This document shows, piece after piece, positions 18,466 to 62,940 of a stretch of 64,000 nucleotides of DNA. A model generated the notes under the pieces. That model was not told where the DNA came from, did not search any database, and was given only the letters and a program-made list of their open reading frames with translations. This DNA is from Herpetosiphon gulosus. GTDB lineage: Bacteria; Chloroflexota; Chloroflexia; Chloroflexales; Herpetosiphonaceae. The stretch's first letter is position 1, and every line of letters starts with the position of its first letter. The stretch covers positions 130,427 through 194,426 of the forward strand of contig NZ_BAABRU010000004.1 in assembly GCF_039545135.1 (NCBI RefSeq), given 5' to 3'. A program made the position numbers and the translations under genes.

Positions 18466-18589
18466 AATAGATCTCCTAGGTTGGTCAACGCGGCCAACTC
18501 TGACATGATCATAGTTGAGCAGACGATTTTTGGCAACCAAGCTGCATGAATTTTTGATGACAAATTCCTAAGAACATCAAGCAAAGAAC

Positions 18590-20820: not shown

Positions 20821-20841
20821 TTGTGTGGTTTGAGGGAAATC

Positions 20842-35348: not shown

Positions 35349-35422
35349 AGTACACCTCCCAAATCTGAAATGTACTCCTGCATATTCTAGTAGTATAGCA
35401 GGGCTGGATTCAGTTGCCTATG

Positions 35423-36784: not shown

Positions 36785-36786
36785 AG

Positions 36787-38175: not shown

Positions 38176-38363
38176 GGCAAGTGGAATTCAACGCACACAA
38201 CAATTCTGGCTACTAACGTTTGATTCTCTAGCAAACGTAGCAGGTTGAAGCATGCTGCTGTGGTTGATGGAGCAATTGATGGGTGGATTGATGTGGGTAT
38301 GTTTGACTCCATGCAGCAGCCAAAAATTTGATTGCTGCATCTTAGCATAATTCAGGGTTTTTG

Positions 38364-41352: not shown

Positions 41353-41388
41353 ATCTCCTTAATAAACCATTCAAACATTTTTTAAAGG

Positions 41389-42402: not shown

Positions 42403-42456
42403 ACAAGCTCCTCATTGCAGCGTGATCGATGAGGGCAGCCAATTTTAAGAATATTC

Positions 42457-42560
42457 CCTCACCCCCACCCCTCTCCCACTGCGGCGGGAGAAGGACAACT
42501 GGCGGGATAGTTCCCCCTCGCCTCGCTTGCGGGAGCGGGGCCAGGGAGTGAGGGATGGAG
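42457..42560. repeat. Family A palindromic repeat (degenerate unit)
   Basis: tccctcacccccacccctctcccactgcggcgggagaagg ... gggagcggggccagggagtgaggg. Confidence 0.8.
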
Positions 42561-42612
42561 ATTATTGTCAATCCAATAAACTATTTCGCCTAGCAATTGA
42601 CTGCTTAGTTAA

Positions 42613-43509
42613 TTAACGTAAGAAGGGCTGGTTAATTAGACTATTTGGACACTCAAGTTGGGGAATTTGTTGAAACTTGTTGTCGTAGAGGCTGCGGCGC
42701 AGTTGTTCGCCCAGGTTGGCATAGCTAATTTGGGGATTTTCGCTGAGGATATTTTTCAAAAAGAAGGTCATTGCACCATGGTAGGTTCCGCCAAAATTGG
42801 CATCGGCGGCAACTTGCTCGGCCTTACAAGCAGAAATCAAAACCGTATTTTCGTGCTGTGGGCGTTGACCAAAGCTCTGTTTTTGCAACGAACTGACTAA
42901 ATCGCCTGCAAACTTGGCAATTTCGGTTGGGTCGGCGCTCCGTTGTTGCAGATCAAGAATTTGCTGCGCCACACTATCAACCTGTTGCTGTTGATAGGCC
43001 TGCTTTTTGGCACGAATTTCGTCAAAAACTGCTTTGGCGGGAGTTAAGGTGCGATACCGAATATCGGCAAATGGATCTTTGCTGATCGTGCCCGAATGAC
43101 AACAATCCATCAATAAAATCAGCCGCGTTGTGCCCAAAAAACCTTGGTACAGCTCAGCCAAATGGTCATCGGTAAGCAGGCCAGCGCTAGGATAATCGAT
43201 CGGAGCAAGACATTCATCAGCACCATCGGGTTCATCACCATTTTGATCAGGCTGCTGCACCCCATGGCCAGCATAATGAAAAATCCGAATTTCCGGCTGA
43301 CCATCGTTGAGCGGTTCGGCGAGCCAGCGCAAATTATCGATAATCGCTTGGCGCGTAGCAGCAGCATCGGTGATCAAACGCAGCTGATCATCGGCAGCAG
43401 CATGCTGGGCTTTAAACAACTCACGAACTGCACTTACATCGTTAACACAGCCCTTGAGTGGCCGCTCGCTATAACTATTGATTCCCACAAATAAGCCACG
43501 AATACCCAT
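42613..43509 (-). CDS. Caspase-like peptidase C14 domain protein (standalone)
   Basis: p20-like fold markers GINSYSERPLKGCVNDV, His dyad context HYAGHGVQ, and catalytic Cys context LLMDCCHSG. 298 aa, with no fused effector domain. Confidence 0.8.
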   Translation of the reverse strand: MGIRGLFVGINSYSERPLKGCVNDVSAVRELFKAQHAAADDQLRLITDAAATRQAIIDNLRWLAEPLNDGQPEIRIFHYAGHGVQQPDQNGDEPDGADECLAPIDYPSAGLLTDDHLAELYQGFLGTTRLILLMDCCHSGTISKDPFADIRYRTLTPAKAVFDEIRAKKQAYQQQQVDSVAQQILDLQQRSADPTEIAKFAGDLVSSLQKQSFGQRPQHENTVLISACKAEQVAADANFGGTYHGAMTFFLKNILSENPQISYANLGEQLRRSLYDNKFQQIPQLECPNSLINQPFLR

Positions 43510-44355: not shown

Positions 44356-44450
44356 ATTATGAGGGATGAAGAACAGAGAGCATAGAATATCAATGGAAAT
44401 CGGGATTGGTTTTTAACGCAGCGGTGCAGAGAAATTAATGGCTATTAGTT

Positions 44451-45136: not shown

Positions 45137-45262
45137 ATTGATCCACGAAGAGCACGAAGGGTAAAACCACGAAGGACGCGAAGAGCGCGAAGGGTGCTTA
45201 ACCCACAGCCTACAGCCCTGATCCCTAACACCTGGCCCCTCATCATTCTCTGCGCCGCTGCA
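45137..45262. repeat. Right copy of the 125-bp direct repeat (family C)
   Basis: See 44451..44575. The copies differ by 1 nt near the 3' end (tgtgcc versus tgcgcc). Confidence 0.9.
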
Positions 45263-45297
45263 TTAAATTCTGAATCCTGAACCCTATAATCTCTGCG

Positions 45298-48869: not shown

Positions 48870-49070
48870 GATGAGGGGTCAGGGGCTAGATTTAACGCAG
48901 AGGGTAATAGGGGCTAGGGTTTAGGGGTCAGGGGCCAGAGACAAATACTCTCGTCCATGAAACCTGATCCCTCGGACTTTGTGCGCTTCGTACCCTTCGT
49001 GGATCAACCTTAGCTTAGCCCCTGAACCCTCGCCCCTGAACCCTGACCACTCGCCCCTGCATCCTATTTC
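48870..49070. repeat. Composite intergenic repeats (families B and C)
   Basis: tttaacgcagagggtaatagg, gtgcgcttcgtacccttcgtggatcaacc, and gcccctgaaccctcgcccctgaaccctgacc. Confidence 0.6.
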
Positions 49071-49483
49071 GCTTTGAAAATCCGTAAGCGCAAACTTGTG
49101 CCTGTGCCCGAGCTTTGCACCTCGTATTGATCAACCAACTCGCTGATGAGATAGGAGCCGAAGCCACGTAACATGCCCGCTTCGAGATTATCTTCCTCGA
49201 CCACTCGCCGCTCGGTATTAAAATGCTCAATGCCTTTGCCATGATCAATAATTTCGACTTCTAATTGATCGGCGTGCAACGAGAAAATAACTTCGACTGA
49301 GCCAGCTACACCGCCACCGCCGCCATGCTCGATAGCATTGGTTACTGCTTCGCTCACCGCCAGTTTCAAATCTTCAACGCGCTCACGTGGAAAGCCCATT
49401 GTGCTACCGAGTTCGGCAGCACTGGCTCGCACAACCCGCTCAAAGACCAAATCCGATGGAATGTTGAGGTGAATCCGATTCAT
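49064..49483 (-). CDS. Anti-sigma regulatory factor, RsbW/SpoIIAB-type Ser-protein kinase (HATPase_c)
   Basis: 139 aa. N-box VSEAVTNAIEHGG and G-box IIDHGKGI. Coupled (ATGA-like overlap) to the upstream TPR gene. Confidence 0.8.
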   Translation of the reverse strand: MNRIHLNIPSDLVFERVVRASAAELGSTMGFPRERVEDLKLAVSEAVTNAIEHGGGGGVAGSVEVIFSLHADQLEVEIIDHGKGIEHFNTERRVVEEDNLEAGMLRGFGSYLISELVDQYEVQSSGTGTSLRLRIFKAK

Positions 49484-51036
49484 CGCGAACCTCCACGAGC
49501 CATTGCCCGGCCCTTTTGTGGTAATTGTTCCTGTTGGTTGATCAGATGTTCATAGCGGCGCAGGTAGGCCTTACCCAAAGAACTGTTGCCAACTTGGAGA
49601 TAACATGCCCCTAAATAGTAGAGCGCTTGGGTATGACGTGGGTTGCGGCGCAGCACTTTTTCAAATAACGGTATCGCTTGGGCTGGTTCTAACATTTCTT
49701 TATAACATGTGCCCAGCATAAAGGTAGTTTCAATATCATCGGGCCAATGCATCAGCACATGGCTAAATTCGCGCGAAGCCAAATCGTAGCGGCGGCGGCG
49801 GGTGTACATATAGCCCAAATCGTAGCGCAATGAATGGGCATGCGGCGCTAACTCGACTGCTTTGCGCCACGCCGCCAAGGCCCAACTTTCATGGCCCAAT
49901 ACCGTGTACATAAACCCCAACAAATAGTAGGCATTGGGATCTTTGGGCAAAAGTTGTACCGCGCGTTCAAAAGCACGCATGGCGGCGTGATGTTTCTCTA
50001 AATCATAGAGCAATTTGCCCATTTGCAAGAACACTTGACCATCGTTAGGACGCAACTTGGCCGTGCTATACAAATGGTTATAGGCCTCACGATGCTTGCC
50101 TTGAAAGCGTAAAATTGCACTGATCCGCAGCCGTGCATCAACATAGTAGCGATCTTGCGGTGGAATTCGGCCATATTCTTGCAAGGCTAATTCCCAACGC
50201 CGCGCCCGAGCCAATAAATTGCCCAACAAATAGCGGGCGCGATGCTCGGTTGGCCGCCATTTCAGCAAGGCCTCGTAAATTCGCTTGGCATCTTCATCAT
50301 AACCTTGGGCTTTGAGGTCGTCACTCAAACGATAGTACCAATTGGCAACCTCTTGCTCGGATTTGCTGACCAGCACTTCATCGGGGCCAACGCTGGGCGA
50401 GATAAAGGTTGGTTCAACTCGCAGCGCCTCGGCAAAACAGCGCTGAGCCAATTCGTGAGCACCATGGGCTTGGTGCATCAAACCCATGTAATACAAAGGC
50501 TCGCCAGCGTAAGGCCGCAATTCACGGGCCGAGGTAAAGTGAATATAGGCGCGGCCAGCATCATCGAGCATTTGATAGGCACGACCAAGCGCAAAATGGG
50601 CCTCGTACAAGCCATTATTATGCTCAAGGGCTTCTTTGAATGCACCGATTGCCCGATCAATCTGGCGCATCGCGCCGAAGGCCACACCTAAATTGTAGTG
50701 GGCTTCAGCTAATTGCGGGTCGGTTTGTACCGATTCCAAATATTCGCGCTGAGCAGTTGGCCAATCATCTTGAAAAGCACAAGCATTGCCAATATACAGA
50801 TAAATAATCGCCCGTTCGCGATCGTAGATTTGCGATTTCTCATCGCCTTCAACATAGGCAGCGATTAATGCAGTTTTAAAATGCTCGATTGCATCAGGAT
50901 AATTGGCGGCCAAATAGGCTTTGATCCCGCGCCCAAACGCAGCACCCAAGCGCGTTCCAGCCATAAAACGCTCGCTCCCAGCAAAGGTATCGAGGTCCAG
51001 CGGCATTACATTCAAAGTGTCAACATTGGTAGTCAT
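49480..51036 (-). CDS. TPR repeat protein
   Basis: 518 aa. At least 10 TPR-like units (repeated AxxYxxLGxxYxxxGxxxxAxxxFxxAL pattern). Confidence 0.75.
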   Translation of the reverse strand: MTTNVDTLNVMPLDLDTFAGSERFMAGTRLGAAFGRGIKAYLAANYPDAIEHFKTALIAAYVEGDEKSQIYDRERAIIYLYIGNACAFQDDWPTAQREYLESVQTDPQLAEAHYNLGVAFGAMRQIDRAIGAFKEALEHNNGLYEAHFALGRAYQMLDDAGRAYIHFTSARELRPYAGEPLYYMGLMHQAHGAHELAQRCFAEALRVEPTFISPSVGPDEVLVSKSEQEVANWYYRLSDDLKAQGYDEDAKRIYEALLKWRPTEHRARYLLGNLLARARRWELALQEYGRIPPQDRYYVDARLRISAILRFQGKHREAYNHLYSTAKLRPNDGQVFLQMGKLLYDLEKHHAAMRAFERAVQLLPKDPNAYYLLGFMYTVLGHESWALAAWRKAVELAPHAHSLRYDLGYMYTRRRRYDLASREFSHVLMHWPDDIETTFMLGTCYKEMLEPAQAIPLFEKVLRRNPRHTQALYYLGACYLQVGNSSLGKAYLRRYEHLINQQEQLPQKGRAMARGGSR

Positions 51037-51046
51037 AACAGTTCCC

Positions 51047-52141
51047 TTAGGACGATCCTTTGGTGGATTGAAGCAAGCGATATTCTTCGATCACTGGGCG
51101 CAATTGCGCTTGGAGTTCACGGGCAATCCCACGGCCAAATTGGCTGGATACCATTTCATTCAGCGGGCGCAACAATTCTAAACATTGGTCGGGTGTACGG
51201 GTTGTGCCCACCAAACTCAAGGCTTGCCACCACTCGTCAGCTGTGATTGGCCCAACCACATCGGCCACGATGCTATGCATTTCATCGAGCAAGTTTGCCA
51301 AGCGCCGCCGGACTAGCACCATCGTCACATCATCGTGTTTAAGCTGGCCTTGAGTCCATGCCCGAACTTCGCTGAGCACGCGGGCCATCAAGGCGCGAGG
51401 CTTGAGATGGCCAACTGCTTGTAATAGGCTTTGAAAGCGTGGGTAGCCATACAATACTTGGTGTTCATTGGTCGCTTCAACAATGCCATCAGTGTACAAC
51501 ATGACCGAATCGCCATAGTTCAGTTGTAAGATGGATTCACTATAACAATCAATTTCCATAACCCCAAGCGGCACACCTGACGTTTCGATTTCAATCACTT
51601 GATTATTGATCACAATCAGATAATTGTGACCAGCATTCGCCAAGTGCATCATGCCCGTTTGCGGGTCGATTAAGGCATACAGCATCGTAACCATGCCTTG
51701 GGGCATTTCTTCGATCAAAATATTATTCACGGCTGCTAAGGTTTGGCCTGGTGATTGGCCGCGCCGCACTTCAGCCCGAAATACCGTTCGCGCCACCGCC
51801 ATCCGCAATGCTGCGGGTAAGCCTTTGCCGCTGACATCGCCAATCATAATGCCCTGGGTACCATTGACCGCCAGAAAATCGTAGAGGTCGCCGCCAAGCT
51901 CACGCGCTGGCAATGAGACCGCGCTCATTTCCCAGCCAGGCAGACGTGGCACGGTTTCGAGCATCAAGCCCTGTTGCAAATCGCGTGCCAATTGCAAATC
52001 TTGTTCCAACTCAGCTTGGCGTTGGTCGATCACTGGCGCTGCGGGCGGCGTTGGCACTGGTGGCTCAAGCGCAACCGCCACACGACCTTGGGCGCGGTGA
52101 CTGAGCAGTGAACTATAGATTGCTGATTGTGCTTTTTGCAT
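51047..52141 (-). CDS. PP2C-type (SpoIIE/RsbU-like) Ser/Thr phosphatase
   Basis: GGDLYDF and GDVSGKGLPAALRMA metal-binding motifs, plus a C-terminal HDDVTMVLVRR motif. Confidence 0.85.
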   Translation of the reverse strand: MQKAQSAIYSSLLSHRAQGRVAVALEPPVPTPPAAPVIDQRQAELEQDLQLARDLQQGLMLETVPRLPGWEMSAVSLPARELGGDLYDFLAVNGTQGIMIGDVSGKGLPAALRMAVARTVFRAEVRRGQSPGQTLAAVNNILIEEMPQGMVTMLYALIDPQTGMMHLANAGHNYLIVINNQVIEIETSGVPLGVMEIDCYSESILQLNYGDSVMLYTDGIVEATNEHQVLYGYPRFQSLLQAVGHLKPRALMARVLSEVRAWTQGQLKHDDVTMVLVRRRLANLLDEMHSIVADVVGPITADEWWQALSLVGTTRTPDQCLELLRPLNEMVSSQFGRGIARELQAQLRPVIEEYRLLQSTKGSS

Positions 52142-52145
52142 AGTT

Positions 52146-53606
52146 TTAGAATGTTCCTTGGCTGGCTTCTAATCCGCCAATCCAGCGTTCACAAGCAGAA
52201 CGCAACCACCCCACGGCGATTCCATCGATTACGGTGCTACTTGAATGGTGCGCCAATTTGCGCAAGGCATGTTGATAATAACGTAAGGCGGCGGTTGACC
52301 GCCCTTGATGGCGATAACTTTCAGCTAAATGAAAGGCAATCGTCGGCGAATCAGGCACCAAATAGCTGGCTCGCTCAAGATAATTGATCGCTTTATCCCA
52401 TGCGCCTTGGTTGAGTTCGATCATCCCCAGCACCACATAGGCAGCATCTTGTAGCACATCAAGCTCTAAAGCACGCCGCGCCTCAGCCGCCGCTTGCTCA
52501 TGTTGGCCAAGATCGGCGTGTAGTTGTGCGGCTAAAGCCAAAATTGCTGGCTGGCGTTGGTTGGGTGCAATACTCGCCAACAGGCTTAATCCACGTCGCT
52601 GCTGACCTTGACCGCGCAATTTCCGTGCTTCATCCAATAAGCTCGTCACATCGGGCGGCTTACTTGGGCTAGCTGGCGCTAATGGCCGTGTGCTTGGGCG
52701 GGGCCGCGCTAGTGCTGGTTCGGCTGGCTTATTCAGCGGCTTGGTAATTGGCCGTTCGCTCAAGTTGGGGCGTGGTTTGGGCTGACCATCGCCTTTACGA
52801 TAGATAAATGCCCCAGCTACCTCGACCGTTTCAAAGCGATCAAAAATGCCCCACAGCGATTCGGAAAAGCCCAAGAGCAAATAGCCACCAACCGCCATCG
52901 CCGCATAAATCCGTTCGATCAATTGGCGACATGTTTCCAGCTGAAAATAGATCGTGACATTCTGGCAAAATACCACATCAAGCTGATAGGCCCAATGTGG
53001 TAGGGCATCGAGCAAATTGTGCTGCTCAAATTGTACCAAGGATCGCACGGCTTCGCTGACGCGCAAGGCTCCGTTGGCTTGCTGCTCAAACCATTGTCTG
53101 TAGTCGGCTTGCACATTGGCCAGCGAACGCCCACGATACTCGGCGGTGATCGCTCGCTCCAAGGGCACATTGCTCAAATCGGTGGCCCAAATCGAAATCG
53201 GGCGGCTCGGCGGATTGCCCCATTGCTGCAAGCCAACCATGGCCATACTATAGGGTTCCTCGCCAGTTGAGCAGCCAGCACTCCAACAACGCAATGGCCG
53301 CAAGGGCGAACGCGAACGCTGCAATTCAGGAAAAATATGCTCACGCAACGCCCGAAAATGAGCTGGGTTACGAAAAAACTGGGTCTCGTGATTGGCCAAG
53401 CGTTCGGCCAACCATTGCAACTCGCTGCCATTGGTCGGGTCTTGAATCCGCAATGTATAGGCAGCGGGGCTAATCTGCAACTGCCGATAACGCTCCTGAA
53501 CCAGCATGCGGCCTTGGCGCATACGACTATCATCGAGATATAAGCCAGCCCGTTGAGCTAGATAATCGCGGATGATCATCCACTGTTCAGTGCTCAACTC
53601 GCTCAT
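52146..53606 (-). CDS. cheR: CheR-type chemoreceptor methyltransferase fused to C-terminal TPR repeats
   Basis: FFRNPAHFRALREHIFPEL and WSAGCSTGEEPYSMAM SAM-methyltransferase motifs. The C-terminal 200 aa have TPR units. Confidence 0.85.
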   Translation of the reverse strand: MSELSTEQWMIIRDYLAQRAGLYLDDSRMRQGRMLVQERYRQLQISPAAYTLRIQDPTNGSELQWLAERLANHETQFFRNPAHFRALREHIFPELQRSRSPLRPLRCWSAGCSTGEEPYSMAMVGLQQWGNPPSRPISIWATDLSNVPLERAITAEYRGRSLANVQADYRQWFEQQANGALRVSEAVRSLVQFEQHNLLDALPHWAYQLDVVFCQNVTIYFQLETCRQLIERIYAAMAVGGYLLLGFSESLWGIFDRFETVEVAGAFIYRKGDGQPKPRPNLSERPITKPLNKPAEPALARPRPSTRPLAPASPSKPPDVTSLLDEARKLRGQGQQRRGLSLLASIAPNQRQPAILALAAQLHADLGQHEQAAAEARRALELDVLQDAAYVVLGMIELNQGAWDKAINYLERASYLVPDSPTIAFHLAESYRHQGRSTAALRYYQHALRKLAHHSSSTVIDGIAVGWLRSACERWIGGLEASQGTF

Positions 53607-54685
53607 CGACGTTCAGTTTCGCTGAGCAACGCCACCAACCGTGGCGCAATCAGATCAGCAGCTAAAAATTCCATGGCAGCCCCAGCTTCCTCTGCCGCCC
53701 GTGGCATGCCCCAAATCGCGCTAGTGGCTCGATCTTGGGCGATAGTGCGTGCCCCAGATCGGCGTAAAGCCAACAAGCCTTGGGCTCCATCGCGGCCCAT
53801 ACCTGTCAACAAGACCCCAATCGTCTGTTTGGGCAAGACTTTGGCAGCTGATTGCATCGTCACATCGACCGATGGATAGAGCAAATTATCGGGTTCGGTT
53901 TCCAAATGCACCGTCCAGTTAGCATCAACCCGCAAATGGTGGGTATCGGGCGCAACATAGACATGGCCATTTTTCAAGCTGCCACGATGTTGAGCCAATT
54001 CCACCGTCAAGGGCGAATGATTGTCCAACCAGTCTACCATTGTACCAACAAATCCCTCGGCGATGTGCTGCACAATGATAATGCTTGCGGGGATGCTCGC
54101 AGGCAGGCTATGCAGGAGTTTGTATAACACACGCGGGCCGCCAGTTGAAGCCCCAACCACAATTAGCCAGCGTTGGCTTGGTGGGCTAGCCGAGGCCAAT
54201 AACAAGGGAATATTGGTTTCGGTGGTTGGCGATTTGCGCCGCCGCCCGCGCAGGTGGGTCACAACTTTAACCCGTGAAAGCACCTTGACCCGATCCAACA
54301 GCCGCATGCGATTGGCTTCGCCTTGGGCTAAGGTCAGGTCGGTAGGTTTTTCCCAAACTTCCAAGGCTCCAGCGTTGAGCATTTGAAAGGTTAAATTGCG
54401 ATCATGGCGAGTCAGTGATGAGGTGATCACCAAAATTGGCGTAGGATGATAGGCCATAATTTCTTCGGTGGCCTGCAAACCATCCATCACCGGCATGCGC
54501 ACATCCATTGTGATAATATCCGGCTGCAATGCTGCCACCAATTGCACCGCCTCACGGCCATCACGGGCCTCGCCAACCACCTGAATCGTTGGATCACTGG
54601 CTAAAATAGTGCTGATGACTCGGCGCGAAACCGCCGAGTCATCGACAACTAACACTCGAATTGGTGCAAGCGGCCCTGTCATCAT
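53603..54685 (-). CDS. cheB: Chemotaxis response regulator protein-glutamate methylesterase CheB
   Basis: N-terminal REC (IRVLVVDDSAVSRRVI). C-terminal methylesterase with GASTGGP and a catalytic His context. Confidence 0.88.
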   Translation of the reverse strand: MMTGPLAPIRVLVVDDSAVSRRVISTILASDPTIQVVGEARDGREAVQLVAALQPDIITMDVRMPVMDGLQATEEIMAYHPTPILVITSSLTRHDRNLTFQMLNAGALEVWEKPTDLTLAQGEANRMRLLDRVKVLSRVKVVTHLRGRRRKSPTTETNIPLLLASASPPSQRWLIVVGASTGGPRVLYKLLHSLPASIPASIIIVQHIAEGFVGTMVDWLDNHSPLTVELAQHRGSLKNGHVYVAPDTHHLRVDANWTVHLETEPDNLLYPSVDVTMQSAAKVLPKQTIGVLLTGMGRDGAQGLLALRRSGARTIAQDRATSAIWGMPRAAEEAGAAMEFLAADLIAPRLVALLSETERR

Positions 54686-55044
54686 TACATACCCAACAAC
54701 AGTTTGACTCGATTGGGCAAATCGAGCAAATCAAGATCTTTGTTGAGATAATCGTCAACTCCAGCTTCAAAACCGGCCCGTTTGTCATCCATCGAAGTCA
54801 ACATGATAATCGGCAGTTCTTCGAATAAAGGATTGGCACGTAACTGACGGCAAACCTCATAGCCATCAATCCCAGGCATCTGCACATCCAACACCACCAA
54901 ATCGGGCGTGAGATCGCCGATTTTTTGCAGCGCTTCCTCGCCGCTATAGGCCAAATCGACAGCATAGCCATACATTTCCAGCCGCATTTTGACAATATCG
55001 GTAACCAGTTTGCTATCGTCAACAACTAAGATACGTTCACTCAT
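54685..55044 (-). CDS. cheY: CheY-like single-domain response regulator
   Basis: 119 aa. ILVVDDSKLVTDIV, acceptor Asp in VVLDVQMPGIDG, and conserved T and K residues. Confidence 0.85.
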   Translation of the reverse strand: MSERILVVDDSKLVTDIVKMRLEMYGYAVDLAYSGEEALQKIGDLTPDLVVLDVQMPGIDGYEVCRQLRANPLFEELPIIMLTSMDDKRAGFEAGVDDYLNKDLDLLDLPNRVKLLLGM

Positions 55045-55091
55045 TGAAAAACTCCTCGCAGGGGAATATAGGCCTTCAGGGCTGCGCTACT

Positions 55092-57389
55092 TTAGCGGCC
55101 AAGTAATTGATGAATCGTTTCGAGCAAGTTGCTTTGATCAAACTGGCTTTTGACGATATAGGCTTGTGCCCCAGCCAACAAGCCTTCGCGTCGATCGCTA
55201 TCGCGGGCCAAGCTGGTGATAATGATAATTGGCAGTTGGCGCAAACGTTCATGGGCACGCACACGGCGGGTTAGCTCAAAGCCAGTTAGCAACGGCATTT
55301 CAACATCGCTTACCAGCAGATCGTAGGAATTGTGATTGAGCTTGTCAAGCGCATCTTGGCCGTTAATTGCGGTTTCAACCACATAGCCCGCCGATTGCAG
55401 CATTGAGCGTAGTAGTTCGCGGGTGGTAAATGAATCTTCCGCAACCAATAATTTGGCAGGCTGGAGCTTGGTTGGCGCTGGCAAGGCGACTGGTTTGCCC
55501 CATTCACGCGCCCGCGCCGCAATCGCCAAGGGATTGAGCACCAACACCAAACGCCCATCAGGCAGGGCAATCGCGCCAGTGCATAATCGCTGTTCATGCA
55601 ACAATGCGCCCAATGATTTAACCACGACCTCACGTTCATCGACCAATTTATCGACCAATAAGGCCAATGGGCGATTAGCTGGTCCCAAAATCACCAAGTT
55701 GGAAATATCCGATGGTTGCGGCAAGGGGCCACGCTGCTCAAGCAAGGGCGCAAGCGCTACAATGCTCACGCTGCGCTCATCGACCCGCACGGTTGGCCGC
55801 CCTTCGACGGTCTGAATTTGCCCGCCAGCAACCCGCCGTCCACCTAAACAAGCGGTCGAAGGCAAAGCATAGGTTGTGCCAGCCACATCAAACAATAACA
55901 CGCGGGTGGTCAACAAAGTAATTGGCAAAATTAGCGTAAATGTTGTGCCTTGGCCGAGCACCGAATGCACATCAACCCGCCCGCCAACCTCGGTCACTGC
56001 TGCCCGAACCACATCCATGCCCACGCCACGGCCTGAAACATCGGTGATGATTGCGCTGGTGGAAAAACCAGGCTGCCAGATTAACTCCAAAGCTTCTTCA
56101 TCACGCAAGCGAGCCGCCGCATCAGCCTCGATAATTCCGCGTTTAATCGCGGTTGCCCGAATTACCGCTGGATCGATCCCACGGCCATCGTCACTGATGA
56201 TGATTTCAATCGTGCCGCCCAACGAGCGAGCTTCTAGCCGTAAAGTGGCTTCAGCAGGCTTTTTGGCTTTAACCCGATCATCGGGATTTTCGATGCCATG
56301 ATCAAGTGCGTTGCGCACTAAATGTACCAACGGATCAGCCATTAACTCAATCACTTTGCGGTCGGCCTCGGTGGTTTCGCCTTCGGTGATTAAGTTAACT
56401 TCTTTGCCCAACGAACGAGCCAGCTCGCGCACGGCACGCGGAATTGGCGCAAATAAACCAGCAACTGGTTGCAAACGGGTCGCCATCACCTCGGCTTCAA
56501 GTTCATCGACCAAGGCCTCGCTGGCAGCGCTATGGCTGCTCCAACGCTCGGTTAGCAAACGCAACTGATTGCGAGTCGATTGGGCTAAATTTTGCAATTG
56601 GCTGGCCAATTCGCTGGCCTCGCGCCGTTGCTGAAAGGTCACACGTTGGCCAGTCAAGCGTTCGCTCAATTGTTGGCTCAGACGCTCACTTTTGGTCAAT
56701 AATTTATCCAAAGCCTCAAGATCAGCGACATGCTCAAGGTGCAATTGGCGGGTCACTACCAACTCACCCGCCGTATTCAACAAGCGATCTAAGCGCGAAA
56801 TTGGCACACGCACCGTCGAACGGGTACTACTCACGGGCTTGGGGGCTTCGGCTGCGGCTGATTTTTTGGGTTTAGGCTTAGCAACCACTGGTTCAGACTT
56901 AGGTTGCTCAAGCACCACTGGCGCTGGCGCTGGTTCTGGTTCGGCCACAGGCGCGACAATTGGCGCAGCTTTGGGTGTTGCTGGAGCCGCAGGCAACGTT
57001 TCGCCAGCCGCCAAGGCATTCAATTGCTCCACCAACTGATCAACGTTGGGATCGGTTGGCGGTGGCTCATTAACTTGGGAATTCAGCACTAGCAGCACAT
57101 CAGCACTGGACAGCAGCACATCGTTAATGCTCGAATTCATGGCCAACATGCCACTGCGCAAGGCTGAAAGCAAACTTTCCATGGTATGCGCCAGACGACC
57201 CATATCAACTTGGCCCAGCATGCGAGCCGAGCCTTTGATCGTATGCGCCGCCCGAAAAATCGTATCAATCGCTTCGCGATCGCCTGGGTTTGACTCCAAG
57301 GCCAATAAGCCTGTGGTCAAGGCCCGCACATTCTCTTCAGTTTCTTCGCGAAACTGGCCAAAAAATGCTGATAAATCAAAACCGCCCAT
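55092..57389 (-). CDS. cheA: Hybrid CheA histidine kinase (HPt, dimerisation, HATPase, CheW-like, C-terminal REC)
   Basis: HPt motif FRAAHTIKGSARMLG. HATPase N/G boxes (VRNALDHGIE, DDGRGID, GRGVGMDVV). A CheW-like domain and a terminal REC (LLVAEDSFTTRELL). 765 aa. Confidence 0.88.
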   Translation of the reverse strand: MGGFDLSAFFGQFREETEENVRALTTGLLALESNPGDREAIDTIFRAAHTIKGSARMLGQVDMGRLAHTMESLLSALRSGMLAMNSSINDVLLSSADVLLVLNSQVNEPPPTDPNVDQLVEQLNALAAGETLPAAPATPKAAPIVAPVAEPEPAPAPVVLEQPKSEPVVAKPKPKKSAAAEAPKPVSSTRSTVRVPISRLDRLLNTAGELVVTRQLHLEHVADLEALDKLLTKSERLSQQLSERLTGQRVTFQQRREASELASQLQNLAQSTRNQLRLLTERWSSHSAASEALVDELEAEVMATRLQPVAGLFAPIPRAVRELARSLGKEVNLITEGETTEADRKVIELMADPLVHLVRNALDHGIENPDDRVKAKKPAEATLRLEARSLGGTIEIIISDDGRGIDPAVIRATAIKRGIIEADAAARLRDEEALELIWQPGFSTSAIITDVSGRGVGMDVVRAAVTEVGGRVDVHSVLGQGTTFTLILPITLLTTRVLLFDVAGTTYALPSTACLGGRRVAGGQIQTVEGRPTVRVDERSVSIVALAPLLEQRGPLPQPSDISNLVILGPANRPLALLVDKLVDEREVVVKSLGALLHEQRLCTGAIALPDGRLVLVLNPLAIAARAREWGKPVALPAPTKLQPAKLLVAEDSFTTRELLRSMLQSAGYVVETAINGQDALDKLNHNSYDLLVSDVEMPLLTGFELTRRVRAHERLRQLPIIIITSLARDSDRREGLLAGAQAYIVKSQFDQSNLLETIHQLLGR

Positions 57390-57404
57390 GCGATAGCTCC
57401 TCGC

Positions 57405-58988
57405 TTAGCGTGTATGTGCCTCGATGTTGACCAACGAATGCAAGCGATTTGCAATCGCGGTGAGTTTGGATGCGGCATCGGCAGTTTGGCGCGAACCAGC
57501 CGCCGTTTGACGTGAGACTTCGGCAATTTCACGCATGGTTTCAACAACTTGCTCCGATGCAGTTTGTTGTTGAGCGGTTGCTAGGCTAATTTCTTGGGCT
57601 AATTGGGCGGTATGTTCGCCCAAAACCACGATTGAATCCATCTCTTGACCAGCGCGATGGGCCAAACTGACCCCTTGTTCGACTTCTTTAACGCTCTCTT
57701 CGGTGGCTAGCACTGAGGCATTAGTTGCAGCCTGAATTTCGGCAATCACATCTTTGACTTCACGTGAAGCGGCCAATGTACGATTAGCCAAACTCTTGAC
57801 TTCGGCGGCAACCACCGCAAATCGCCGACCATGCTCGCCAGCCCCAGCCGCTTCGATCGCCGCATTCAAGGCCAACAAGTGCGTTTCATCGGAAACATCA
57901 TCGATCAAAGCAATAATTTCGCTGATATGATGCGAACGTTCGCCCAAACTCAAAACCCGCGAAGAAACCTCTTGCACCCGTTGCTTGATTCGCTCCATAC
58001 CTTGAATTGCTTCATCAACCGATTGCTGGCCCATCGCCAACGAGGTCAAGGTTTGTTGAGCAGCAATGCTGACTTGATCTGAGGCACTGGCGATTTGTCG
58101 CGCGGTAAAGCCCAATTCTTCAATGGTTGATGAAACTTCTGCGACTGCTGAGGCCTGTTCCGTCGCCCCTGAAGCTTGTTGCTGCGAGGCTGCCGATAAT
58201 TCAGTGGCGGCAAATGACAGATCAGTGCCAAGCTCAATCTGCTGAATATTTTTCTCGATCAATTGTTCATTGGCCCGCATCAGGTCGGAAGTCCATTGCT
58301 CGCTCTTGAGTGAATATTCACCTAAAGCCCGGCTAAAAATGGTGGTCAGCACAATCGTCGTGGCCAAACCAACAAAAAACAGCACTGCTCCAACGCCATA
58401 CACCCCAGCATTATTAGCGGCAGTCAGGGTTGTTACCTGAAATGATGCAAGGCTATCTTTGAGTAGCAGCAACATCCCATAGGCCAAGGTAATCGAAACC
58501 CCATAGGCCACAATTTCACGCCAAGTTGCCACCAAGCCCACGATAAATAGCATCACCAGCAATAACGAGACGATCAGACTTTGATCAATGCCACCATAGC
58601 GCACGGCACAAGCCAAGGCTGCCAACGAAATCGTGCCAATTAAAACATAGGTCGCAATTTGATCTTGGCCTTGCCGAATCATGCGCAAACTGAGCAAGGC
58701 AATTAACCAAACCGCCCCCATCGAGACGAATAAAACCCCAAGGGCATTCCATAATTGCGGATTATTGCGCTCGTAAATCCACGCCACCAAGACCACTAAA
58801 AAAGGCACGACCAAGGCAGCCAAGGCGACAATCCGCATAATCACGCGGCGGCGATCAGTCAAATTCGTAAAATCGAGCGAGAAAAGCGAACCTAAATTCG
58901 CCATGAGCAGACTCCTTGGCACTGGTCTAGCGCTTGGCATGTACCAGCACAAACAGTTCAAGATCAAGCATGAGGCATGGACGGTCAT
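57405..58988 (-). CDS. Methyl-accepting chemotaxis protein with multi-TM N-terminal sensor
   Basis: Highly conserved MCP signalling hairpin (ALNAAIEAAGAGEHGRRFAVVAAEVKSLA) and methylation-site heptads. 6 or more TM helices at the N-terminus. Confidence 0.85.
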   Translation of the reverse strand: MTVHASCLILNCLCWYMPSARPVPRSLLMANLGSLFSLDFTNLTDRRRVIMRIVALAALVVPFLVVLVAWIYERNNPQLWNALGVLFVSMGAVWLIALLSLRMIRQGQDQIATYVLIGTISLAALACAVRYGGIDQSLIVSLLLVMLFIVGLVATWREIVAYGVSITLAYGMLLLLKDSLASFQVTTLTAANNAGVYGVGAVLFFVGLATTIVLTTIFSRALGEYSLKSEQWTSDLMRANEQLIEKNIQQIELGTDLSFAATELSAASQQQASGATEQASAVAEVSSTIEELGFTARQIASASDQVSIAAQQTLTSLAMGQQSVDEAIQGMERIKQRVQEVSSRVLSLGERSHHISEIIALIDDVSDETHLLALNAAIEAAGAGEHGRRFAVVAAEVKSLANRTLAASREVKDVIAEIQAATNASVLATEESVKEVEQGVSLAHRAGQEMDSIVVLGEHTAQLAQEISLATAQQQTASEQVVETMREIAEVSRQTAAGSRQTADAASKLTAIANRLHSLVNIEAHTR

Positions 58989-59346
58989 CGAGCATAATAA
59001 TGCCCAAAATGCTGGGGTCGAGCAAGCTATCGGAAACTAAACTTGGCAGTGGTTGCAGGCTCAAGGCTGTGCTAATTGGGTCGCCCAATTGATCGACTAC
59101 CACGCCCATGGCTGTTTGCCCAACCACAAATAAGGCTAAGCGATTGGCTTGTTGGCCAATTGGCTGCTGGAGCCACTGATTTAAGTCAATGACATCGATT
59201 GAATTGCTTTGCTGAATCACGCTGCTAATTGGTTGCCCAGTATTCGCAACATAATCCACACCAACCAAAGCAGTTTGGCGAATCAAGACCGTTTGATCGC
59301 CAACATTGACTGGATACAGATCGCTGACAACTGCCGGATTAACCAT
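58927..59346 (-). CDS. CheW-like coupling protein (divergent)
   Basis: The ORF is open to 59433, but the upstream part overlaps the cheW gene. A start near MVNPAVV is likely. The domain is about 140 aa with a weak CheW pattern (VLIRQTALVGVDYV...ALFVVGQTAMGVVVDQL). Confidence 0.5.
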   Translation of the reverse strand: MVNPAVVSDLYPVNVGDQTVLIRQTALVGVDYVANTGQPISSVIQQSNSIDVIDLNQWLQQPIGQQANRLALFVVGQTAMGVVVDQLGDPISTALSLQPLPSLVSDSLLDPSILGIIMLDDRPCLMLDLELFVLVHAKR

Positions 59347-59785
59347 TGATCGACCCAAGCAAGGCATTAAGATCAAGCCAAGTTGCAAAACCAAACGGCG
59401 TTGGCAGCAAGCCTCGGCTAGCAACTGTCCCACGATGGGGAGTTGGCTCGGCCAAACTCACATTCAGCATCAACATATCGATCACCTGATCAACCGCAAT
59501 TGCACAATCGATCTGTTCGTGAACGAGCAAAAAGCGACTGCGCCGGGTTGGGGTAATCGGCTTCATGCCTAAAACCACCCGCATATCAACCACCGTCAGC
59601 AAAACCCCGCGCTGATTGATAATGCCCATAATGGCTGTGGCAGTGCCTGGAATTCGGGTTGGATTGCGCCAACGTTCGATGCCACGCGCCTGCTCAACTG
59701 GCAAGGCAAACCGTTCTTGATCGAGGATAAAAACCACAAATTGCGCCAATTGATCCTCAACTTGGCTCACAACAGGCTCCCGCAT
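59339..59785 (-). CDS. cheW: Chemotaxis coupling protein CheW
   Basis: FVVFILDQERFALPVEQARGI...GIINQRGVLLTVVDMR is the classic CheW signature. Confidence 0.85.
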   Translation of the reverse strand: MREPVVSQVEDQLAQFVVFILDQERFALPVEQARGIERWRNPTRIPGTATAIMGIINQRGVLLTVVDMRVVLGMKPITPTRRSRFLLVHEQIDCAIAVDQVIDMLMLNVSLAEPTPHRGTVASRGLLPTPFGFATWLDLNALLGSING

Positions 59786-59929
59786 GATTCAATAATGGTT
59801 GTATGGCTCAATTGAGCAGCAACCAAGCATTGAATCATCACAAATGGCGCGTTCTAAAGCAGCAAATCGTAGCTTAGCATAGTCGCAAGGTAGCCCAACT
59901 GTCAAGCGTACTAAAGCAAGTAATTTATA

Positions 59930-60225
59930 AGGATGAGGGATGAGGGGTCAGGTTTCAGGGGCGAGGGCTAGAAGTTCATGCAGAGCCACTAAGAAGGAGG
60001 AATTATGAGGGATGAAAGCAACCATCAAAAATTGAGGATCACGCTATTCAACGCAGAGGCGCAGAGAAAAATGAGGGAACAGATGTCAGGGTCAGCAGAA
60101 ATTGGGACTTTGGGATAAGCAACCTTCGTGGCCTTCGTGCTCTTCGTGGATCAAAATAATCTTCGTGCCCTTCGTGGATCAAAACTATGAGCCTGATCCC
60201 CGATCCCTAACCCCTGATCCCTAAC
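59930..60225. repeat. Composite intergenic repeats (families B and C, inverted orientation relative to 44451)
   Basis: aggatgagggatgaggggtcaggtttcagggg, ttcaacgcagaggcgcagag, ccttcgtgctcttcgtggatcaa (reverse-complement of family C core) and ctgatccctaacccctgatccctaacacct. Confidence 0.7.
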
Positions 60226-60227
60226 AC

Positions 60228-60560
60228 CTATGCCCGATAGGCTTGCAATTGGTTGATTAAATTGCGGCCAGTAATGGGCTTGGCAAGGCTTAGGCGACCA
60301 GTGGTGCGGGGTTGGGGCAGGTCGGTCAGCAAAATATAATTCTGATGATCGCGGCAATTGAGCGTATTGCTGTGCTCGGTTGAAATTGCTTCATCAAGGA
60401 TGATAAATTCTGGTTGATATTGCTCGTTCAGTTGAGCAGCGAGGGTGCAGGAATCGGCTTCGTAGACTGTATAGCCTGCCCGGCGAAGATGATATTTCAT
60501 AAGCGTTCGGGTGATCCAATCGGGATCAACCAGCAAAACAGTCTTTAGCATACTTAACAT
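60228..60560 (-). CDS. Single-domain REC-like response regulator
   Basis: VLLVDPDWITRTLM and FIILDEAI (acceptor Asp) with a LAKPI Lys. 110 aa. Confidence 0.6.
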   Translation of the reverse strand: MLSMLKTVLLVDPDWITRTLMKYHLRRAGYTVYEADSCTLAAQLNEQYQPEFIILDEAISTEHSNTLNCRDHQNYILLTDLPQPRTTGRLSLAKPITGRNLINQLQAYRA

Positions 60561-60627
60561 CCTTATAGTGATGGATCATTTGGGCAACCATCACCACCAC
60601 TATAAGAATGTAAGTTTACGAGTAAGA

Positions 60628-61338
60628 TTACAAGCCGCGCCGTGGTTGCACGTCGAACACGTAACCCACGCCTCGCACGGTTTTTAAGTAGATTGGCTTG
60701 GATGGGTTGTCCTCAAGTTTGGTGCGCAACGAGCGAATTCGCACCCACAACGAGGATTGATCGCCCTCTTCGCCCAAACCCCAAGCCTTACGCAACAGGG
60801 TCGTGGTTGCCACCGCCACAGTTGGAGTTTGCAACAGCAAATACAACACCCGTAGCTCAATCGGCTCCAACGGAATCGCCTCGCCTTTGCGCAACAGAAT
60901 ATGTTGACCAAAATTGACTGAAAGATCTTCGTCAATTACGACCAACTCGCCCGGATGCAAGCCACCTTCATACGATTTAGTCAGCAGCTTGTTAACCCGC
61001 GCTCGCAATTCAGGGTAGCGGTAGGGCTTGGTCATATAATCATCGGCATGCTGTTCGAGGCCGCGCACGGTGGTAGCCTCATCGGAAATTGAGGTCAGCA
61101 TAATCACTGGAATTTCCACATAGCGCCGCAAACGGTCTGACAACTCAAAACCGGTCATGCCAGGCATCATCAAATCGAGAATCGCCAGATCAGGCCATGA
61201 ACTTTCAACCATCGTTAGCGCCGATTGGCCTGATTCTGCCGCCATCACCTCAAAACCATCGTTAAGCAAATTGCTCACGAGCGTGCGGCGAATAATCGTG
61301 TCATCATCAACTACAAGAATACGCCATCGTGCTGGCAT
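60628..61338 (-). CDS. OmpR-family response regulator
   Basis: REC (ILVVDDDTIIRRTL, LAILDLMMPGMTG) plus winged helix (VRGVGYVF). Confidence 0.88.
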   Translation of the reverse strand: MPARWRILVVDDDTIIRRTLVSNLLNDGFEVMAAESGQSALTMVESSWPDLAILDLMMPGMTGFELSDRLRRYVEIPVIMLTSISDEATTVRGLEQHADDYMTKPYRYPELRARVNKLLTKSYEGGLHPGELVVIDEDLSVNFGQHILLRKGEAIPLEPIELRVLYLLLQTPTVAVATTTLLRKAWGLGEEGDQSSLWVRIRSLRTKLEDNPSKPIYLKTVRGVGYVFDVQPRRGL

Positions 61339-61344
61339 CGGGTG

Positions 61345-62940
61345 TTACTCCTTCCAAGGTAGCTGCACGGTGACAGTCGTCCCCTTGCCTACTTGGCTAT
61401 CTACGCTAATTGTGCCGCCATGAGCACCAACTGCTAAATTACAAAAGGTCAAGCCCAACCCAGTGCCCCGTGATTGGGCTGTAGTACGGCCTTGATAAAA
61501 TTTATCGAAAATATGCGGAATATCTTCGGCAGCAATTCCCTGCCCCGTATCGCTCACGTTCAGGGTAATCAGTTGCTGCACTTGATCAATCGTGCCAACG
61601 ACGCGAATTGTACCACCTGGTCGCGTCCATTTGATGCCATTGCTCACCAAATTGGCCAATACCCGTACCATTTTATGCTCATCAAGCACCACCAATGGTT
61701 CAGCTGGTAGATCAAGTTCAAAGCTCAGTTGTTGCTCAACCGTGATCCCCAAGACTTGCTCACTCAACAATTCACCCAAACGTTGCAGGCTGGTGGTTTC
61801 TTGGCTAAGCATCAAGCGGCCTGCCTCAGCCTTATACACATCGAGCAAATCATCAATCAGGCGTTGTTGGGCAGCTCCGGCTCGAAAACCAAGCTCGACA
61901 AACAATTTGCCATCATCATCAAGTTGGGTGGTCATCAAGGCATCAAAGCAGCCAACCATGCCCGCCAACGGTGCGCGTAAGTCGTGGGTCAGCATCTGAA
62001 TAAAACCATCGCGGCTATCTTCAGCTTCGCGCAAACGGGTGTAAACCGCAGCGTTGGTTAAGGCGACGCTTAATTGATCAGTCAGGGCTTTGATCAAGGT
62101 TTCTAGCTCGGTGCGGAAGAAATTGCGCTGAGGATGCACCAAGATAAACACCCCAATGATCGTATTTTGGGCATAATTATGCAATGGCAAGGCCAGTGCC
62201 GAGCCAATTTCCTCACGATCATCATAAAAATGCTTCCAGCGGGGATCATTCTGGGCATCTTCGACAATTTGGACTTCGCCAGTACGCAAGGCATATGAAG
62301 CCAAGCCTTCACGCAACACCGCCTGAATCGCTTGCTCAGCCTCGGCAGGCGGCAAATGTGGCCGAAACAAGATCCGCCGCCAAACCCGATTTTGATCATC
62401 GAGCAGCAACACGCTACCACGGCTGGCTCCCAGCAGTTCATTGATCGCATTCAAGGCTTCGGGCAGCACTTGATCAATATCCAATGAGCGATGCAAGGTT
62501 TGCGAAACCCGATAGAGAAAGCGCAAACGTTCTTGTTCACGATGCAATGCCCGCCGTGTATGCTTCAGGCGCAGCAGCACCCGCATTCGAGCCAACAATT
62601 CATCACGATTAACGGGCTTGGTAACGTAATCATCAGCGCCCAAATCCAAACCAGTTACCGTGTCGGCGGTGGTTTGTTTGGCCGAAACAAAGATAATTGG
62701 AATAAATGGCAGATGATTGCGCTCACGAATTGCCTGAAGCGTTTGATAGCCATCCATCTCCGGCATCATCACGTCAAGCAAAATCAAATCGGGGACTTGT
62801 TGTTCGAGCATGGTCAAGGCTTCGAAGCCGCTACGAGCACAGGCAGTGGCATAACCAGCGCGTTCCAACATCCGCTGTAACACCATCACATTGGTGGTTT
62901 GATCATCCACAATCAAAATTAGTTCGGGTGTTGCTTGCAT
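61345..62940 (-). CDS. Hybrid sensor: N-terminal REC, GAF, HisKA, HATPase histidine kinase
   Basis: REC (ILIVDDQTTNVMVL, LILLDVMMPEMDG). A GAF-like middle region. H-box LTHDLRAPLAGM. N/G boxes (LVSNGIKWT, GTGLGLTFCNLAVGAHGG). Confidence 0.85.
   Translation of the reverse strand: MQATPELILIVDDQTTNVMVLQRMLERAGYATACARSGFEALTMLEQQVPDLILLDVMMPEMDGYQTLQAIRERNHLPFIPIIFVSAKQTTADTVTGLDLGADDYVTKPVNRDELLARMRVLLRLKHTRRALHREQERLRFLYRVSQTLHRSLDIDQVLPEALNAINELLGASRGSVLLLDDQNRVWRRILFRPHLPPAEAEQAIQAVLREGLASYALRTGEVQIVEDAQNDPRWKHFYDDREEIGSALALPLHNYAQNTIIGVFILVHPQRNFFRTELETLIKALTDQLSVALTNAAVYTRLREAEDSRDGFIQMLTHDLRAPLAGMVGCFDALMTTQLDDDGKLFVELGFRAGAAQQRLIDDLLDVYKAEAGRLMLSQETTSLQRLGELLSEQVLGITVEQQLSFELDLPAEPLVVLDEHKMVRVLANLVSNGIKWTRPGGTIRVVGTIDQVQQLITLNVSDTGQGIAAEDIPHIFDKFYQGRTTAQSRGTGLGLTFCNLAVGAHGGTISVDSQVGKGTTVTVQLPWKE

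Follow-up and report, generated by a model that had tools for sequence, protein, structure and literature searches.

Does a run of chemosensory (che) genes that continues directly into the genes of a partner-switching module encode one signaling system, and what would such a system control? The question is raised by the minus strand of a 64,000-nucleotide stretch of Herpetosiphon gulosus DNA (contig NZ_BAABRU010000004.1, positions 130,427 to 194,426; hereafter the window, in which all coordinates are numbered), where ten co-directional genes run from 59785 down to 49064 with no gap larger than 47 nt. A previous interpretation made from the letters alone (the sequence-only reading) had described this string and proposed that it ends in the phosphorylation of a STAS antagonist and the release of a sigma factor. 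We put at about 60% the probability that the locus encodes an alternative-cellular-function (ACF)-type chemosensory system with a built-in partner-switching output module.

The coordinates and the Pfam assignments, which cover nine of the ten products (the exception being the second cheW), confirmed the proposed order of the genes:

59339-59785, minus strand: cheW, 148 aa (Pfam CheW, E 1.8e-21)
58927-59346, minus strand: second, divergent cheW, 139 aa, starting at the ATG at 59346 and identified through its orthologs
57405-58904, minus strand: methyl-accepting chemotaxis protein (MCP), 499 aa from the ATG at 58904, in an open reading frame (ORF) open to 58988 (Pfam MCPsignal, E 1.4e-37)
55092-57389, minus strand: cheA, 765 aa (Pfam Hpt, dimerisation, HATPase, CheW-like and C-terminal receiver (REC) domains)
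54685-55044, minus strand: cheY, single-domain response regulator, 119 aa (Pfam Response_reg, E 1.6e-27)
53603-54685, minus strand: cheB, methylesterase with a receiver, 360 aa (Pfam CheB_methylest, E 1e-56, and REC)
52146-53606, minus strand: cheR-TPR, methyltransferase with a C-terminal tetratricopeptide (TPR) domain, 486 aa (Pfam CheR, E 3.6e-50; TPR repeats at residues 355-455)
51047-52141, minus strand: RsbU/SpoIIE-type PP2C serine phosphatase, 364 aa (Pfam SpoIIE, E 1.9e-46)
49480-51036, minus strand: all-TPR protein, 518 aa (Pfam TPR families)
49064-49483, minus strand: RsbW/SpoIIAB-type serine kinase (rsbW), 139 aa (Pfam HATPase_c_2, E 1.4e-25)

The genes are tightly packed. Overlaps occur between cheW and the second cheW (8 nt; ATG at 59346 versus the cheW stop), between cheY and cheB (1 nt) and, as ATGA sequences, at the cheB/cheR and TPR/rsbW junctions. 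The gaps measure 22 nt (second cheW/MCP), 15 nt (MCP/cheA), 47 nt (cheA/cheY), 4 nt (cheR/PP2C) and 10 nt (PP2C/TPR). The tight same-strand run from the che genes into the PP2C, TPR and rsbW genes, with its ATGA overlap at the last junction, was therefore as had been described. At the cheR/PP2C junction, where the two halves meet, relatives show an overlap or 6 nt (loci L001 and L002) or 46 nt (L004). The top-scoring promoter-like site of the region lies inside the 442-bp intergenic gap upstream of cheW and is a candidate operon promoter:

59876-59905, minus strand: promoter-like site TTGACA-18-TATGCT, about 90 nt upstream of cheW (a consensus match only)

Within the cluster, promoter-like hexamers occurred at chance level (16 observed versus 11.5 +/- 3.7 expected), as did terminator-like matches, which lay in coding sequence. 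A search of the leaders against Rfam gave no match to a riboswitch or to any other family of RNA.

Evidence that the two halves belong together came from other genomes. We scanned one genome per species and obtained 64 Chloroflexia loci with a full-length PP2C ortholog, over which a gene-order census was made by tblastn, with ten genes detectable. All ten were collinear in 40 loci. Among the loci with enough sequence, the TPR, rsbW and STAS genes followed PP2C in 56 of 59, and che genes came before it in 40 of 42. All called gene maps of relatives showed the same eleven-gene order, cheW-cheW-MCP-cheA(REC)-cheY-cheB-cheR(TPR)-PP2C-TPR-rsbW-STAS. The block was found in about 60 species of gliding filamentous Chloroflexia, including members of Herpetosiphon, Roseiflexus, Chloroflexus, Oscillochloris and Kouleothrix, and collinearity extended over the Herpetosiphonales, the Chloroflexales and deeper Chloroflexia lineages. 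The PP2C orthologs nearest to that of the window, with 92% identity in protein and about 87% in nucleotide sequence, come from H. giganteus DSM 589 and Herpetosiphon sp. NSE202; the names attached to PP2C homologs are those of Herpetosiphonaceae, Roseiflexus, Oscillochloris and Chloroflexaceae. The block is also present in the genome of Chloroflexus aurantiacus J-10-fl (P0332), and the same context was seen on a Chloroflexus-type metagenome contig (L089). The recurrence of this gene order in about 60 other genomes is far beyond chance. What flanks the block varies from genus to genus, with ABC transporters, polysaccharide genes, gyrase and transposases among the neighbors, so that only the che/partner-switch block is conserved. 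Beyond the 64 loci, all matches of the scan were to unrelated PP2C domains, in Acidobacteriota, Planctomycetia and other groups, that had no che, TPR, rsbW or STAS neighbors.

This comparison bears directly on the possibility that two independent systems merely lie side by side, a che pathway whose CheY controls gliding and, next to it, an unconnected partner switch that has an input of its own. The promoter-like hexamers inside the cluster would fit such an arrangement, but they are at chance level; the promoter-like site that the STAS gene has for itself in Herpetosiphon (described below) would also fit, as a sign of sub-operonic expression. Mere adjacency is difficult to reconcile with strict collinearity between variable flanks in two orders and in deeper lineages, with the tight cheR/PP2C junction, and with TPR and STAS families whose named members are essentially all from Chloroflexia and which belong to a module that follows the che genes in nearly all the loci where this could be read. 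We consider it very improbable. On this comparative evidence the che and PP2C/TPR/kinase/STAS modules would almost certainly be one functional unit, and the linkage of the che genes to the PP2C, TPR and RsbW genes that the sequence-only reading had proposed was upheld, the unit being collinear across two Chloroflexia orders and tightly spaced.

In the window the eleventh gene is not in its usual place. The sequence-only reading had noticed a STAS gene at 18100 and none in the cluster itself. We confirmed the former, and located a segment that separates it from rsbW:

18100-18465, minus strand: STAS-domain protein, 121 aa (Pfam STAS, E 2.2e-7), in an ORF open to the TTG at 18540
18508-18536, minus strand: promoter-like site TTGCCA-17-TATGAT, upstream of the STAS gene and followed by AGGAG and ATG
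18577-48976, no strand: intervening segment of 30.4 kb, delimited by blastn against three other Herpetosiphon loci

The Met start of the STAS protein is preceded by AGGAG. The protein is 98% identical to those of H. geysericola and H. giganteus, with 56-86% identity to its counterparts in more distant relatives, and by orthology its gene is the eleventh cluster gene, which lies directly 3' of rsbW in relatives; this marks it as the cognate partner. The statement that the cluster has no STAS gene was thus correct for the window, where the 216 bp after rsbW contain neither the gene nor a remnant of it but intergenic repeats only, and incorrect for the system, since it describes a peculiarity of this genome. 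The gene is missing from the cluster because of the 30.4-kb segment. In H. geysericola, H. giganteus and NSE202, collinearity with the window breaks off at 48977 (at 49020 for NSE202) and resumes at about 18576-18620, and the segment is present at this site in the window genome only, being absent from the three others. As a result, the window STAS gene lies 30.6 kb from rsbW, compared with 284-510 nt in these three genomes and about 15 nt in most Chloroflexales.

The STAS gene probably has its own promoter in Herpetosiphon, as judged from the promoter-like site and from the about 115 bp before the ATG, which are near-identical across three Herpetosiphon genomes. A promoter of its own would explain why the split of the operon is tolerated, and with this conserved site the system of the window genome is probably still complete. 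The split operon is in this sense a natural experiment, which indicates that the STAS gene can work, or can at any rate be retained intact, outside the operon.

We then asked what the enzymes of the module look like. The kinase has RsbW (6m36, E 4.5e-14) as its top match in the PDB, followed by SpoIIAB, and its N box (SEAVTNAIEHG), G1 box (DHGKG) and G2 box (RGFGSYLI) are kept in 60 orthologs. Its identification as an RsbW-type kinase therefore survived the alignment of these motifs. The scores were below the NCBIfam equivalog cut-offs for RsbW (79.9 bits versus 145 for PRK04069, and 69.3 versus 155 for TIGR01924) and for SpoIIAB (67.4 bits versus 135), and the protein is for this reason a member of the RsbW/SpoIIAB family rather than an ortholog of either. 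Ser57 of the STAS protein (in FINSAG) is the predicted phospho-acceptor and takes, in the alignment, the position of Ser58, the phospho-acceptor of SpoIIAA; the surrounding motif, FINSaGIS.LLKF, is kept in 59 orthologs. Homologs of this STAS protein are rare (264 matches in 5.8 billion proteins), and those with a name are essentially all from Chloroflexia.

The phosphatase keeps the metal-binding motifs GGDLYDF, GDVSGKG, YTDG and DDxT in 66 orthologs, with aspartates D85, D102, D218 and D270/D271 invariant. Neither Pfam, nor the alignment, nor the AlphaFold2 (AF2) model disclosed a REC, PAS, HAMP, RsbT-binding or membrane domain in it. The model (predicted local distance difference test score, pLDDT, 82.8) consists of a variable N-terminus, a long helix (residues 37-60), the PP2C core (70-279) and a C-terminal four-helix bundle (284-362) with a pLDDT above 90. 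Among solved structures its nearest neighbors in fold are the Rv1364c RsbU domain, RssB, SiaA and SpoIIE, and the Foldseek matches are confined to the PP2C core. The part that lies beyond the core carries a signature of its own:

51050-51301, minus strand: C-terminal domain of the PP2C protein, residues 281-364, with the invariant motif GRGxARExxxQxRxxxExYR, modeled as a four-helix bundle (AF2)

These 84 residues had 10 matches among 1.84 billion representative proteins, and the modeled bundle looks like a clade-specific regulatory domain.

The protein encoded between phosphatase and kinase is modeled by AF2 as two TPR arrays (residues 29-206 and 227-503) with a disordered linker between them; it contains no enzymatic domain, the model showing TPR arrays only. 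Profile matches in NCBIfam and the PDB were generic (MamA, OGT, Cdc27), and no more specific identity emerged from them. The N-terminal end contains a conserved peptide that looks like a short linear docking motif:

50965-51015, minus strand: peptide MPLDLDTFxGSERF of the TPR protein, residues 8-24, invariant and modeled as unstructured

The TPR protein is 99% identical to that of H. giganteus, 66-75% identical to those of Chloroflexales and still 55-57% identical in the deepest lineages. At E<=1e-20 it had 226 homologs in 5.8 billion proteins; the best 120 of them were all >=68% identical, and among these 120 the named ones were nearly all from Chloroflexia. More generally, identity to Chloroflexales is 64-79% for CheY, the TPR protein and the STAS protein and 35-47% for CheA, CheR and CheW, as would be expected if the first three were interaction hubs. 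CheY and the STAS protein equal or exceed the TPR protein in conservation.

These properties of the kinase bring up the question of the sigma factor. Canonical rsbW and spoIIAB operons carry their own sigma gene, unlike the conserved block described here, in which no sigma factor gene was seen in any genome whose called genes were read, and the flanks of the block differ between genera. Sigma-factor release, which had been proposed as the output, is therefore unproven, and this part of the sequence-only reading was not borne out for the genomes with called genes. The kinase could nevertheless be a true anti-sigma factor, with dephosphorylated STAS protein freeing an alternative sigma factor that is encoded elsewhere and controls a regulon. 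RsbW and SpoIIAB are indeed its nearest relatives among solved structures and curated families, and the che1-linked CrsR/CrsA pair of Shewanella controls RpoS, likewise encoded elsewhere (PMC9855816). On the other hand, the kinase did not reach the RsbW equivalog cut-off, this scheme gives the conserved TPR protein no role, and in several partner switches without an adjacent sigma gene the STAS protein is itself reported as the output, often with an undefined target, as with Nostoc HmpUWV and Vibrio SypE/SypA (PMC8256260, PMC6495340). Release of a distant sigma factor therefore appears to us doubtful, though a serious contender.

The chemosensory half is of a type that is well represented in these bacteria. 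The second cheW product of the window had no Pfam match. Pfam CheW does recognise four of the five orthologs that were aligned (best E 1.2e-10), and a profile of the orthologs finds E. coli CheW in the PDB (E 5e-4), so that we consider the product a divergent CheW; the gene calls of relatives label this position CheW or CheW (weak). Hydropathy analysis of the MCP predicted six hydrophobic segments at residues 25-189, connected by short loops and leading straight into the signaling coiled coil, in agreement with the earlier description of a polytopic sensor. No HAMP domain and no ligand-binding or periplasmic domain was found in it. Aligned with CtpM, its signaling domain shows no net difference in length, and it exceeds the Tar-type models by about 28 aa, which suggests a 40-heptad (40H-like) class; the hairpin tip is invariant among orthologs. 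The kinase and REC motifs of CheA are kept in 53 orthologs. In CheB the motifs GASTGGP, VQHIA and GMGRDGA are conserved, and the score is above the cut-off of the NCBIfam CheB subfamily (355 bits versus 342); the S-adenosylmethionine-binding motif of CheR is also conserved. CheB and CheR-TPR would serve adaptation by methylation, beside a sensing core made up of the MCP, the two CheWs and CheA-REC. CheY, the only free response regulator of the cluster, has conserved DD, D53, T and K motifs and is among the most conserved of its proteins (100% identity to H. giganteus, 64-78% to orthologs outside the Herpetosiphonaceae). Pfam and the called genes of relatives revealed no CheC, CheD, CheX, CheZ or CheV in the cluster.

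MCP, CheA and CheW are encoded together. The hybrid CheA-REC, the CheR-TPR fusion and the lack of CheC, CheD, CheX, CheZ and CheV in the cluster are typical of the ACF class, to which all Chloroflexi chemosensory pathways have been assigned (PMC3447774). In the same work Chloroflexi che clusters were catalogued with CheR-TPR and a 'single domain RR' (RR, response regulator), and the CheR-TPR fusion was linked to the ACF class and to Chloroflexi without flagellar genes (PMC3447774). As the fusion is typical of ACF pathways, and of Chloroflexi in particular, it is not the unusual feature that it had been taken for (PMC3447774). Judged by its domain architectures, the chemosensory half is probably of the ACF (Wsp-like) type throughout the Chloroflexia. 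A single complete chemosensory system has been noted in Herpetosiphon genomes (PMC6210107).

With a che half that has no output domain and a PP2C protein that has no input domain, a flow of signal from the Che proteins to the partner switch is the best reading of the block. A membrane or envelope stimulus would act on the MCP array and alter the activity of CheA. Phosphorylated CheY (CheY~P) would dock on the C-terminal helical bundle of PP2C, or act through the TPR protein as a scaffold, and change the activity of the phosphatase on phosphorylated STAS protein. The RsbW-like kinase would phosphorylate Ser57 of the STAS protein, and the unphosphorylated form would bind the kinase. Phosphatase and kinase would in this manner set the phosphorylation state of Ser57, and capture of the kinase by the STAS protein would displace the other partner of the kinase. 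For this third partner, or effector, we prefer with low confidence the TPR protein, because of its slot beside the kinase, its translational coupling and its high conservation; the effector may be the TPR protein or the STAS protein. Filament surface behavior (gliding, aggregation, matrix) is our guess for the physiological target, made from the taxonomic distribution.

Several points weigh against this proposal. Every signaling step is predicted from sequence. The PP2C protein has no REC domain with which to read CheY~P. The case for the TPR protein as partner consists of gene position, translational coupling and conservation, and that for gliding or aggregation of a correlation with taxonomy. 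No sigma factor gene is found in the cluster, and one encoded elsewhere could be the target instead. Two or three loci from metagenome-assembled genomes (MAGs) lack TPR-rsbW-STAS after PP2C; in two of these, L044 and L050 (Chloroflexales/Chloroflexaceae), unrelated large ORFs take their place, which points either to another natural split of the block or to an error of assembly. In many Chloroflexales, moreover, two genes come after the STAS gene, a conserved one for a single-domain REC protein (about 35 loci; 61-80% identity among them) and one for a REC-GAF-HD protein (about 27 loci), e.g. at 13756-15799 in L004 and 11869-13920 in L089. In those organisms the encoded proteins could be the real targets or outputs of CheA, or may form an extra branch of the output. 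Both genes are absent downstream of the STAS gene in Herpetosiphon and Roseiflexus.

The same receiver genes fit another scheme, in which the STAS protein binds CheA or the MCP in a phosphorylation-dependent, CheS-like manner and so feeds back on phosphotransfer or on the activity of the array, while the true output is CheY or other receivers. The alphaproteobacterial STAS-only protein CheS binds CheA and redirects the flow of phosphate between CheYs (PMC12654446), and an action of a STAS protein on a chemoreceptor has been proposed in Campylobacterota (PMC9239204). CheS, however, needs no dedicated kinase or phosphatase, whereas here the PP2C/kinase/STAS set is conserved together with an intact phospho-serine motif, and feedback of this kind would leave the PP2C protein without an identifiable input. 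We regard it as improbable, though less so than two unrelated neighbors.

A partner switch as the output of the che pathway is thus the reading that we favor. Its fully specified form, in which CheY~P is read by the REC-less PP2C bundle or by the TPR protein, the kinase holds or releases the TPR protein and not a sigma factor, and the system acts directly, at the level of proteins, on filament gliding or aggregation, is much more tentative, and we would not rely on all its parts being correct. If they were, the Chloroflexia would link chemosensory arrays to partner switches by a novel route, and the one chemosensory system noted in Herpetosiphon, a glider, would have a defined output for the first time.

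The surroundings of the block also deserve description. Directly upstream of the che genes, on the minus strand, 60228-62940 encodes a degenerate receiver-like ORF of 110 aa, an OmpR-family regulator and a REC-GAF-HisKA-HATPase hybrid kinase. These genes are kept beside the cluster in H. giganteus and NSE202 and not in other genera.

The 30.4-kb segment has a gene content unrelated to the che/partner-switch system, with an OmpR/PAS-kinase pair, an FGGY kinase, an MFS transporter, a LuxE-like enzyme, a SUKH-1 protein, two glycosyltransferases and a Kelch protein. It also contains consecutive genes for a MoxR-type AAA_3 ATPase, a DUF58 protein and a DUF4129 protein (20821-24277) and a GGDEF diguanylate cyclase gene whose product has a 217-aa N-terminal region of no recognised type (27001-28227). 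Four consecutive FAD-dependent halogenase/monooxygenase-like genes (33990-39485) are followed by a gene for a LodA-type L-lysine epsilon-oxidase (39409-41352), an unassigned ORF of 337 aa and a gene for a caspase-like C14 peptidase (42613-43509); the region 33990-43509 may be an antimicrobial or secondary-metabolite locus in this predatory genus. No integrase or transposase was found among the about 25 ORFs scanned, and the one tRNA gene lies away from the borders:

31269-31359: tRNA-Ser, internal to the 30.4-kb segment

As far as these ORFs show, the segment bears no signature of a mobile element. A dispersed intergenic repeat, GCGCCTCTGCGTTAAAT, occurs six times in the window (0.3 copies expected):

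18621-18637, 31561-31577, 44411-44427, 45252-45268, 48890-48906 and 60046-60062: copies of GCGCCTCTGCGTTAAAT

It adjoins G-rich or C-rich runs, e.g. GGGGTTAGGGATCAGGG and CCCCTGACCCCTCATCC, and both edges of the segment carry it, as does the region upstream of cheW. The repeat may serve as a substrate for recombination or represent a repetitive extragenic palindromic (REP)-like element.

In the literature searched, the che/partner-switch block of the Chloroflexia is nowhere described. The motility genes of the Chloroflexia, which are filamentous gliders, have not been identified (PMC5826079, PMC5812497). The PP2C/TPR/kinase/STAS block that follows the che genes in 56 of 59 genomes gives the che clusters of this class a concrete and testable candidate output, and CheY, the TPR protein and the STAS protein are three highly conserved handles for finding what the pathway controls. 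Experiments are feasible, since the cluster is present in cultivated organisms (C. aurantiacus J-10-fl and Herpetosiphon species). How a single-domain CheY~P would signal to a REC-less phosphatase is a mechanistic question that the cluster raises; the block is of interest both for chemosensory and partner-switch signaling and for motility in the Chloroflexia.

The sensing half of the Wsp system comprises a membrane MCP, two CheW-type proteins, CheA-REC, CheB and CheR-TPR. This ACF pathway of Pseudomonas thus has the same sensing-half parts list as the Chloroflexia block. It differs in gene order and in its output, which is WspR, a REC-GGDEF protein (PMC3447774), as opposed to a single-domain CheY and the PP2C/TPR/RsbW/STAS module; the MCP of the window in addition has no periplasmic domain or HAMP domain. 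No GGDEF gene is found in the conserved block, the one at 27001-28227 belonging to the inserted segment.

On the output side, the block resembles the RsbU-RsbV-RsbW-SigB and SpoIIE-SpoIIAA-SpoIIAB-SigF systems of Bacillus, with which it shares the PP2C metal motifs, the N, G1 and G2 boxes of the kinase and a STAS serine at the position of Ser58. In contrast with these, its order is PP2C-TPR-kinase-STAS, the operon includes no sigma gene, and the phosphatase has a novel C-terminal helical bundle in place of an RsbT-binding N-terminal domain or a membrane domain. A STAS-only protein is also encoded with the che genes of Sinorhizobium and Agrobacterium (PMC12654446), but this protein, CheS, acts on CheA and CheY1 without a dedicated kinase or phosphatase, whereas a full phosphorylation cycle is encoded here.

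Nostoc punctiforme offers a parallel in its way of life, being a filamentous, surface-motile organism with a Che-like system (Hmp) and an RsbU/RsbW/RsbV-type switch (PMC8256260, PMC6495340). Its partner switch, HmpU/HmpW/HmpV, controls motility and polysaccharide, with the STAS protein as output (PMC8256260, PMC6495340). As compared by their descriptions, hmpA-F and hmpU-W are separate systems, whereas in the Chloroflexia the genes form one collinear block that includes a TPR protein.

The closest arrangements are those in which a che cluster contains a serine phosphatase, an anti-sigma-type kinase function and one or more STAS antagonists and presumably feeds a partner switch rather than a motor. 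The che1 locus of Shewanella oneidensis encodes CrsR, a REC-PP2C-HATPase protein, and CrsA, and controls RpoS (PMC9855816), and the 'stage 1' ancestral F7 che clusters of gamma-proteobacteria, of which V. cholerae cluster III and the P. aeruginosa Che2 relatives have been named, contain anti-sigma antagonists and a serine phosphatase (PMC7184735). In contrast with the single CrsR polypeptide, the phosphatase (364 aa) and the kinase (139 aa) are here separate, REC-less proteins with a 518-aa TPR protein between them. The target of the Shewanella locus is RpoS. The block described here belongs to the Chloroflexia lineage and, according to the literature, to the ACF class. It differs from the F7 stage 1 clusters by its CheA-REC, CheR-TPR and six-segment MCP and by having no CheD and no Aer2-type soluble receptor. 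Partner switches linked to che genes are therefore already known elsewhere, and the Chloroflexia block is not a categorical surprise; what is new is its architecture, a third one among the few chemosensory pathways wired to partner switches, in which the enzymes are separate and REC-less.

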